In this document: positions 63,506 through 63,627 of the stretch, piece by piece
How the letters are laid out: every line of letters starts with the position of its first letter
Numbering within the stretch: position 1 is the stretch's first letter
From: Myxococcales bacterium
GTDB taxonomy: Bacteria; Myxococcota; UBA727; VGSZ01
DNA length: 63,627 nucleotides
Direction of reading: 5' to 3'
Assembly (NCBI GenBank): GCA_023248635.1
Contig: JAHFED010000033.1
Coordinates: 1 to 63,627 of the forward strand
Position numbers and translations under genes: made by a program
Notes under the pieces: model-generated
What the model saw: only the letters and a program-made list of their open reading frames with translations
Databases searched by the model: none
Told to the model about the DNA's origin: nothing

Positions 63506-63627
63506 CCTTTGCGCCGTGCCAACGGCGCAAAGCAGGAAGCCCTTTGCGCCGTGCCAACGGCGCAAAGCAGGAAGCCCTTTGCGCCGTGCCAACGGCGCAA
63601 AGCAGGAAGCCCTTTGCGCCGTGCCAA
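63506..63627. repeat. 35-bp tandem repeat (3.5 copies, truncated by window edge), each unit containing an 8-bp-stem hairpin
   Basis: Unit cctttgcgccgtgccaacggcgcaaagcaggaagc with period exactly 35 (ccttt at 63506, 63541, 63576, 63611). Internal palindrome ttgcgccg-tgccaa-cggcgcaa. It produces the repeated MARRKGLPALRRWHGAK pseudo-ORFs. Confidence 0.85.

Follow-up and report, generated by a model that had tools for sequence, protein, structure and literature searches.

A head-to-tail array of hairpin-forming 35-nt repeats, probably a REP-like palindromic element, in an uncultured Myxococcota-like bacterium

One end of the contig considered here breaks off in the middle of a tandem repeat, which raises the question of what kind of element such a repeat represents, and of what it does, if anything, for the genes beside it. 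The stretch analysed, hereafter the window, comprises 63,627 nt of a Myxococcales bacterium (contig JAHFED010000033.1 of GenBank assembly GCA_023248635.1). A preliminary description of this sequence placed the repeat 5' of a gene for a cNMP-binding protein and proposed that it could carry regulatory hairpins, an array of DNA-binding sites or a minisatellite.

The array consists of 3.5 perfect head-to-tail copies of the 35-nt unit CCTTTGCGCCGTGCCAACGGCGCAAAGCAGGAAGC, hereafter F1, exactly as first reported, and is recovered by TRF with a period of 35, 100% matches and a score of 244; the 35-mer is matched 3 times as against 0.00 times expected from 100 shuffles. The hairpin noted in each copy is also present, although its dimensions have to be revised, as what had been read as an 8-bp inverted repeat with a 6-nt loop is an 11-bp stem closed by a GCCA tetraloop (CTTTGCGCCGT-GCCA-ACGGCGCAAAG), such that each unit is made up of a 26-nt hairpin and the 9-nt linker CAGGAAGCC. 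The predicted free energy of the folded unit is -19.7 kcal/mol for RNA and -14.6 for DNA, a stability reached by 0 of 200 shuffles, and the fold of the region as a whole has a z score of -4.9. The first stem starts after a single spacer base past a TGA stop codon (63503-63505). All of the units lie in the same orientation, and none contains GTAG, CTAC, CGTC or GACG, the equivalent position in the linker being occupied by GAAG. The unit lacks a stop codon on either strand and the array is stop-free in all six frames, which accounts for the spurious ORFs that start inside it.

Extending the sequence rightwards, which had been proposed as a means of counting the copies, confirmed that the array is cut by the window. 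An 81,381-bp contig from another assembly (L027; ENA ERZ27276474, k141_1906814), reached by way of exact-protein look-ups, is 100% identical to the window across the 11,760 nt compared and continues 17.9 kb beyond its edge. Here the exact periodic run measures 140 nt, or four copies, and is followed by a degenerate fifth copy with a broken stem (ACTTTGCGCCGCGCCAACGGCTCGA) and, directly after it, by an array of three 63-nt units of a second family, F2. The same structure of four exact units and one degenerate unit is found in a contig from a different sample (L072; ERZ27280021), which is 99.96% identical over 5.3 kb yet has exactly one 63-nt F2 unit fewer (two as opposed to three). A run of 140 nt contains no fully periodic 141-mer, and therefore contigs assembled at k=141 should rest on reads that span the whole array; had a longer array been collapsed at k=141, a run of 175 nt or more would have been left, and the run is therefore not expected to be a collapsed one. 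The repeat is thus real, and its length in these populations, from which two alleles were sampled, is four exact units plus one degenerate unit. It forms one module of a composite cluster in which 4.6 copies of F1 are directly followed by three of F2. The comparison between samples thus returned no difference for F1 itself and a changed copy number for the adjoining F2 array between near-identical strains.

The setting of the array among its neighbours (Table 1) differs in one essential respect from that first described. The array is indeed near the cNMP gene, 225 nt from its start codon, but it does not lie functionally 5' of it, as a conserved gene for a Cys-rich protein of 67 aa intervenes on the opposite strand. 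The start codons of the two genes are 21 nt apart and divergent. The product of the true cNMP gene is a single 150-aa cNMP-binding domain without a DNA-binding domain, and nearly all of its 390 homologues are about 150 aa in length. Versions of 251-260 aa that reach into the array were rejected as artefacts on the basis of these homologues and of the GC content by codon position, which is non-genic in the N-terminal extension (0.79/0.39/0.64) when set against the core (0.65/0.50/0.84); the ORF start inside the array had already been called an artefact, and this view holds. A coding function of the array was ruled out by its period, which at 35 nt is not a multiple of 3, by the same codon-position GC and by the homologues that lack the extension.

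The 67-aa gene, in turn, is called as a gene of 63-67 aa in three relatives. The differences between it and these relatives fall mainly at third positions, with 18-22 differing codons synonymous and 6-9 non-synonymous, a pattern that indicates purifying selection on the gene in the three relatives. Its product (..SCCEDCEHFVD..C..FCKMFE..) has no match in Pfam or NCBIfam, and exact-protein look-ups found neither it nor the 156-aa cNMP protein on record. That the gene is uncalled in near-identical contigs can be attributed to the over-extension of the cNMP ORF, which was carried across the opposite strand through the stop-free repeat. The array is extragenic, being placed past the stop codon that ends the 67-aa gene and ahead of the following plus-strand gene. 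Because the 67-aa gene intervenes, with its stop codon one base from the array, the array lies outside the cNMP promoter; it is the 3' flank of the 67-aa gene, upstream of a co-directional CHAP-like gene, and it does not regulate the cNMP gene.

The product of that next gene, an ORF of 326 aa, is rich in Pro and Ala in its N-terminal half and has a C-terminal CHAP or NlpC-P60-like domain that scores 24.6 bits, just below the Pfam cut-off. F2 hairpins of type B are found on both sides of the gene, those on its far side being two in number, and the gene may have arrived together with the repeats. A reading of the CHAP-like gene as an integron cassette with an attC site was considered and set aside, by inspection only, for want of an integrase and of an R/L box pattern.

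Table 1. Positions of genes and repeat elements; numbering is that of the window (w) unless a contig is named.
Feature	Position	Strand	Remarks
True cNMP-binding gene, 156 aa	62810..63280	-	Pfam cNMP-binding domain; divergent from small gene
Conserved Cys-rich 67-aa gene	63302..63505	+	Codon-position GC 0.65/0.39/0.82 (genic); stop abuts array
F1 array, 3.5 of 4 exact units	63506..63627	+	Remainder of unit 4, degenerate unit 5 and adjoining F2 array lie past window edge (L027 11639-11990)
First F1 hairpin (GCCA tetraloop on an 11-bp stem)	63507..63532	+	Repeats at 63542-63567 and 63577-63602; restarts at 63612
326-aa ORF, CHAP-like, next gene after F1/F2	L027 12148-13128	same as 67-aa gene	Weak C-terminal CHAP / NlpC-P60-like domain
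FYDLN_acid upstream block	L027 13310-13370; L073 9680-9730 (-); L074 2570-2620 (-); L075 535-590 (-)		Conserved, non-coding
F1' cluster in atpD leader, three diverged head-to-tail units of ~31 nt	31640..31729	-	Absent from sister species' conserved leader
F2 mosaic element, single copy	1273..1369	-	Left module, hairpin B, GT-CTAC tag, hairpin A (TGGC loop)
F2 array, hairpins A-B-A	8322..8441	-	Family of the array adjoining F1
F2 array, 3 units of 63 nt	20103..20343	+	Opposite orientation; hairpin A TTCATCGCC-GCCA-GGCGATGAA, linker CCGGTAGAC, hairpin B
F3 array, period 33, 4.2 copies	L027 19846-19983 (~w 71713-71850)		TTCAAGACGC-GCCA-GCGTCTTGAA + CATCCAAAC; between minus-strand FtsX-type permease and DUF1385 genes

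Whether the array is an old part of this locus can be judged from the three relatives, namely the NCBI MAG GCA_030685175.1 ('Deltaproteobacteria bacterium') and two ENA contigs, whose cNMP proteins are 80-82% identical to that of the window. In these, a FYDLN_acid gene follows 96-208 nt after the small gene, and neither hairpin arrays nor the 326-aa gene are present. Since the arrays and the CHAP-like gene are absent from the syntenic site in all three relatives, they are a lineage-specific insertion. The cNMP gene and the small gene are kept in all three without the F1 and F2 arrays, from which it follows that the F1 array is no conserved regulatory region. Hairpins of the F1, F2 or F3 type were found neither in the relatives nor in a sister species. 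The possibility that the array arose in place was also entertained, as the sequence after the stop codon of one relative has GCGC..GCCAACG, and only this, in common with F1, a resemblance too weak to support the claim.

Just upstream of the FYDLN_acid gene there is a strongly conserved non-coding block, TTTGACAG..N..GGTGGCA(G/C)AAGCCGGCCGACCCA(A/G)G, which is found in four lineages and is probably a promoter or leader element; this promoter-like block has been retained in the lineage of the window.

In the 72.7 kb that were read, the exact 35-mer is confined to a single locus, such that a search for the same unit elsewhere was negative for the exact unit and positive for a diverged form, F1', in the leader of atpD. 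The last and best-preserved of the three F1' hairpins (31705-31726, TTGTGCCGT-TGGC-ACGGCACAA) is a reverse-complement relative of F1 in which the loop is unchanged and the stem carries one compensatory change of C:G to T:A. In the sister species, with an AtpD more than 90% identical, the leader is kept and the F1' insert of about 85 nt is missing. The F1' units are inserted between a conserved leader that contains (GAC)n and the ribosome-binding site of atpD, and the insert may affect the expression of ATP synthase. The sister species (L077-L081, ~7920-8750 and 12455-12539) has short-period tandem repeats of its own, CAGGCACA x8.8, ATGTGTCAGGG x3.3 and an in-frame (GAC)28, with no hairpin arrays there, and its gene coordinates imply that these repeats differ in length between samples.

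The second family, F2, was found at five loci (~w 1273, 8322, 20103, 63680 and 65017), or roughly one per 15 kb, the sites beyond the window corresponding to L027 11810-11990 and 13150-13222. Its elements are assembled from a shared left module (CCCGG..TGAGGGCAGAGA), a hairpin B with a GTAG tag and a hairpin A with a GCCA loop; in the unit beyond the window edge, hairpin A reads TTCATCGCC-TGGC-GGCGATGAA and hairpin B AATTCACCGACA...TGTCGGTGAATT, followed by GT-CTAC. F2 elements face either way, their intergenic surroundings vary, and at one locus the two samples have different numbers of units. The third family, F3, forms an array beyond the window (Table 1), ahead of which lies a distinct hairpin that is perfect over 14 bp, CAGAGATGGTGAGT-GATT-ACTCACCATCTCTG. 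Within each F2 or F3 array, as in F1, the units share one orientation.

These families are linked by more than their hairpin form. The 72.7 kb contain 23 perfect hairpins with a tetraloop, of which 16 have a GCCA or TGGC loop, distributed over four different stems (F1, F1', F2-A and F3), and when the requirement is relaxed to at least 8 of 9 stem pairs the number with such a loop rises to 17, at 7 loci, compared with 2 matches in 505 kb of unrelated control DNA. In the direction in which the loop reads GCCA, each of the members has a 9-nt linker after its hairpin that fits the pattern C[AC]N-(GTAG/GAAG/CAAG/CCAA/TCAA)-[AC]C, as in CAG-GAAG-CC for F1, CCN-GTAG-AC for F2 and CAT-CAAG/CCAA-AC for F3, the linker of F1' (CCA-TCAA-AAC) being one base longer than that of the other families. 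The stems covary between families at 8 of 9 pairs around an invariant loop; the perfect pairing in this comparison reflects how the set was selected, which the shared loop and linker do not. The set was restricted to hairpins of equal length, MAFFT having misaligned stems of unequal length. The hallmarks of the superfamily are the GCCA tetraloop, stems that begin with TT and end with AA, and a 9-nt linker that contains a GTAG-like tetranucleotide. From locus to locus the hairpins do not keep one orientation with respect to transcription, and some of the loci are in divergent promoter regions; the inconsistent orientation favours a DNA-level element over an orientation-specific RNA signal. Of the three options first put forward, a minisatellite or mobile sequence comes closest, in view of the diverged F1 hairpin at a second locus and the dispersed superfamily.

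What known class of element does this most resemble? REPs are extragenic palindromes of 20-40 bp that occur as several families per genome and can be reiterated in tandem together with flanking DNA; their sub-families differ by complementary changes in the stem, and a tetranucleotide tag adjoins the stem or lies a dinucleotide away from it (Di Nocera et al. 2013, PMC3733652). The F1 array is probably a non-coding REP-like palindromic element that has been amplified head-to-tail, as in SMAG arrays. Amplification of this kind, with loci that vary among strains, has been described for the SMAG REPs of Stenotrophomonas maltophilia (Roscetto et al. 2008, PMC2613905), and most genomes are said to have few REP dimers of the head-to-tail kind (PMC3733652). 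With a 26-nt hairpin in a 35-nt unit, F1 is of the size of a REP. Its tag is neither GTAG nor CGTC, and the degenerate forms that have been published do not include GAAG; nor do its units alternate in orientation as in a BIME, all being head-to-tail. REPs typically number more than 100 copies per genome, against which the 72.7 kb read contain the F1 unit at one locus, F1-type hairpins at two, F2 at five and the superfamily at seven; genome-wide copy number and mobility are extrapolations from this stretch. F1 is therefore taken to behave as a REP would and to be related to a GTAG family, without being counted as a proven member, because its tag reads GAAG; in F2 the tag is GTAG itself (GTAG-AC-stem).

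The likeness to SMAG loci (PMC2613905) extends to the GC-rich genome (66-67% GC), the amplification of a small intergenic palindrome with few flanking bases, the coexistence of several related families and the strain-variable unit number, which is seen here in the F2 array. There are differences as well, in that the tag is GAAG as opposed to GTAG, F1 has the longer stem, of 11 bp, and a GCCA loop that is fixed, the units measure 35 nt as opposed to 50-103 nt, the copy number of F1 is so far without variation, and the host belongs to an uncultured deltaproteobacterium-like lineage. With the REPs and BIMEs of Enterobacteria and Pseudomonas, which carry GTAG or CGTC tags (PMC3733652; Nunvar et al. 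2010, PMC2817692), the elements share the extragenic stem-loop of 20-40 bp, mosaic clusters of more than one hairpin type, complementary stem changes between sub-families and a frequent location near stop codons. As in GTAG-1 and GTAG-2, the tag is a dinucleotide from the stem, F2 being exactly GTAG-AC-stem. Classical BIMEs, however, alternate in orientation, whereas the F1 and F2 arrays are strictly head-to-tail, and the F1 tag is of neither type. The MIRU-VNTR loci of mycobacteria offer a further parallel, as MIRUs are short tandem units, tens of bases long, that vary among lineages and occupy intergenic spacers between co-directional genes; they differ in being 46-101 bp in length and non-palindromic and in often containing small overlapping ORFs, whereas the F1 unit is mostly a perfect hairpin.

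From the observed insertion in this lineage, the tandem structure with its degenerate edge unit and the dispersal of related hairpins, a scheme can be drawn up whereby a REP-like element, a GC-rich stem-loop of 26 nt with its 9-nt linker, would have entered the intergenic spacer and would then have been copied head-to-tail, likely by slipped-strand mispairing or unequal recombination, leaving four identical units and a decaying unit at the edge. The element itself is presumably selfish or neutral DNA. If it is transcribed with the 67-aa gene, the mRNA would carry four to five stable hairpins from one base past the stop codon, and these would, by analogy with the REPs of E. coli, shield the upstream message from 3' exonucleases and insulate or attenuate read-through into the 326-aa CHAP-like gene. 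In E. coli, translation is reduced by REPs that lie less than 16 nt past a stop codon (Liang et al. 2015, as summarised in PMC12306157), and the hairpins here, being within 15 nt of the stop codon, may by the same analogy lower translation of the 67-aa gene.

A bolder proposal, put forward only tentatively, is that the GCCA-tetraloop hairpins constitute a REP superfamily not described before, belonging to a deltaproteobacterial (Myxococcota-like) lineage that is uncultured. Its stems are variable and covary, its loop is invariant, and a GTAG-like tag follows at a distance of 3 nt; in single-stranded form the hairpins would be the substrate that a lineage-specific RAYT, or another HUH enzyme, recognises, and the superfamily would spread mainly by re-insertion beside itself, thereby generating head-to-tail arrays of about four units. 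No Y1_Tnp (RAYT) domain was found in the called genes of w 21.7-72.7 kb or in the 16 ORFs scanned in w 1-22 kb; RAYT genes are usually single-copy in a genome, and their absence from 72.7 kb is for that reason uninformative. In a search of 185,579 GTDB species genomes, the F1 hairpin core gave 20 single-copy chance matches in unrelated taxa and no arrays, and the F1 hairpin had 0 matches in both the JGI metagenomes and IMG/VR. A 19-mer of F2 gave 43 matches in the JGI metagenomes, all of them by chance and without the F2 hairpin context, in apparently unrelated coding sequence, and a 401-nt stretch of L027 (11600-12000) that covers F1 and F2 matched nothing in plasmid and phage collections.

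Four other explanations have to be weighed against a REP-like element. The one that fares best, although it is still unlikely, holds that selection has kept the array for its function, and not as selfish DNA, in the role of a cis-acting RNA element in the transcript of the 67-aa gene, be it a multi-hairpin terminator without a U-tract, a 3' stabiliser, or an attenuator with respect to the CHAP-like gene. The start of the array one base past the stop codon, flanking genes that are both on the same strand, the stability of each hairpin and of the region as a whole, and the translational effects known for stop-proximal REPs all speak for it. Against it stands the absence of the array from the three relatives that keep the 67-aa gene, as do four identical copies, which exceed what a terminator would need, and the sister families, which occur in either orientation and also in divergent promoter regions. 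Nor is there any terminator signature: a scan found no sigma-70 promoters and, over L027 10800-13400, no T-run terminators, and each F1 hairpin is followed by its linker, not by the U/T run that would be expected of an intrinsic terminator. Searches against Rfam 15 at the gathering score returned a tRNA (40262-40333) as the sole match in the window and none in the array, where a relaxed search yielded sub-threshold chance matches only.

It is improbable that the array is a contingency or VNTR locus that tunes or switches a neighbouring gene by its unit number. In its favour, perfect tandem units slip easily, near-identical contigs differ by one unit in the adjoining F2 array, and SMAG arrays vary among strains (PMC2613905); F1, however, has the same number of units in both spanning assemblies, lies outside coding sequence and is without a recognisable promoter, and its 35-nt period is far longer than the tracts typical of phase variation.

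Operator sites for a regulator of the divergent pair of cNMP and 67-aa genes, in line with the array of DNA-binding sites first proposed, would account for units that are palindromic, regularly spaced and close to the cNMP start codon. This explanation is very improbable given that the 67-aa gene separates the array from the cNMP gene, that relatives with the same gene pair do without the array, that the cNMP protein has no DNA-binding domain and no regulator gene adjoins the array, and that hairpins with the same loop and different stems are scattered among unrelated genes.

The idea of an assembly artefact at the contig end, which could appeal to the window ending inside the repeat and to a Logan k=31 contig (L028) that stops 28 nt into the array, or of a degenerate CRISPR array without spacers, which could appeal to regularly spaced, hairpin-forming repeats of about 30 nt and to a unit layout (a short 5' part, a GCCA-loop hairpin and a tail of 8-9 nt) that presumably resembles a type I-E CRISPR repeat, is effectively refuted by two k=141 contigs from different samples that cross the array with unique flanks and identical structure, by a run length that argues against collapse, by a constant 9-nt linker in place of unique spacers, by the lack of cas genes among the called genes of w 21.7-72.7 kb and the window ORFs scanned, and by the recurrence of the same architecture, in many small arrays with different stems, at other loci; the array had from the outset been judged not to be CRISPR-like.

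A REP-like array opens no new kind of system. Its bearing is on the reading of such genomes, as this lineage carries dense arrays of REP-like hairpins that break short-read assemblies, and as stop-free arrays make gene callers over-extend the neighbouring ORFs, which here hides a conserved 67-aa gene. Near-identical strains differ in their arrays, which are thus possible strain markers. A head-to-tail family with a fixed GCCA loop and covarying stems would, if borne out, widen the known range of REP architectures and point to a recognisable partner enzyme. Searches of the literature found no description of REP-type elements in Myxococcota-like bacteria, and they appear to be undescribed there.

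Two other genes of the window may be recorded here. The 809-aa product of one (26632-29061, minus strand) matches the shoulder domain of the major vault protein (PF11978), which is unusual for a bacterium, and a protein of 1019 aa (10232-13291, plus strand) combines a TLC-type ATP/ADP transporter domain with HEAT repeats.
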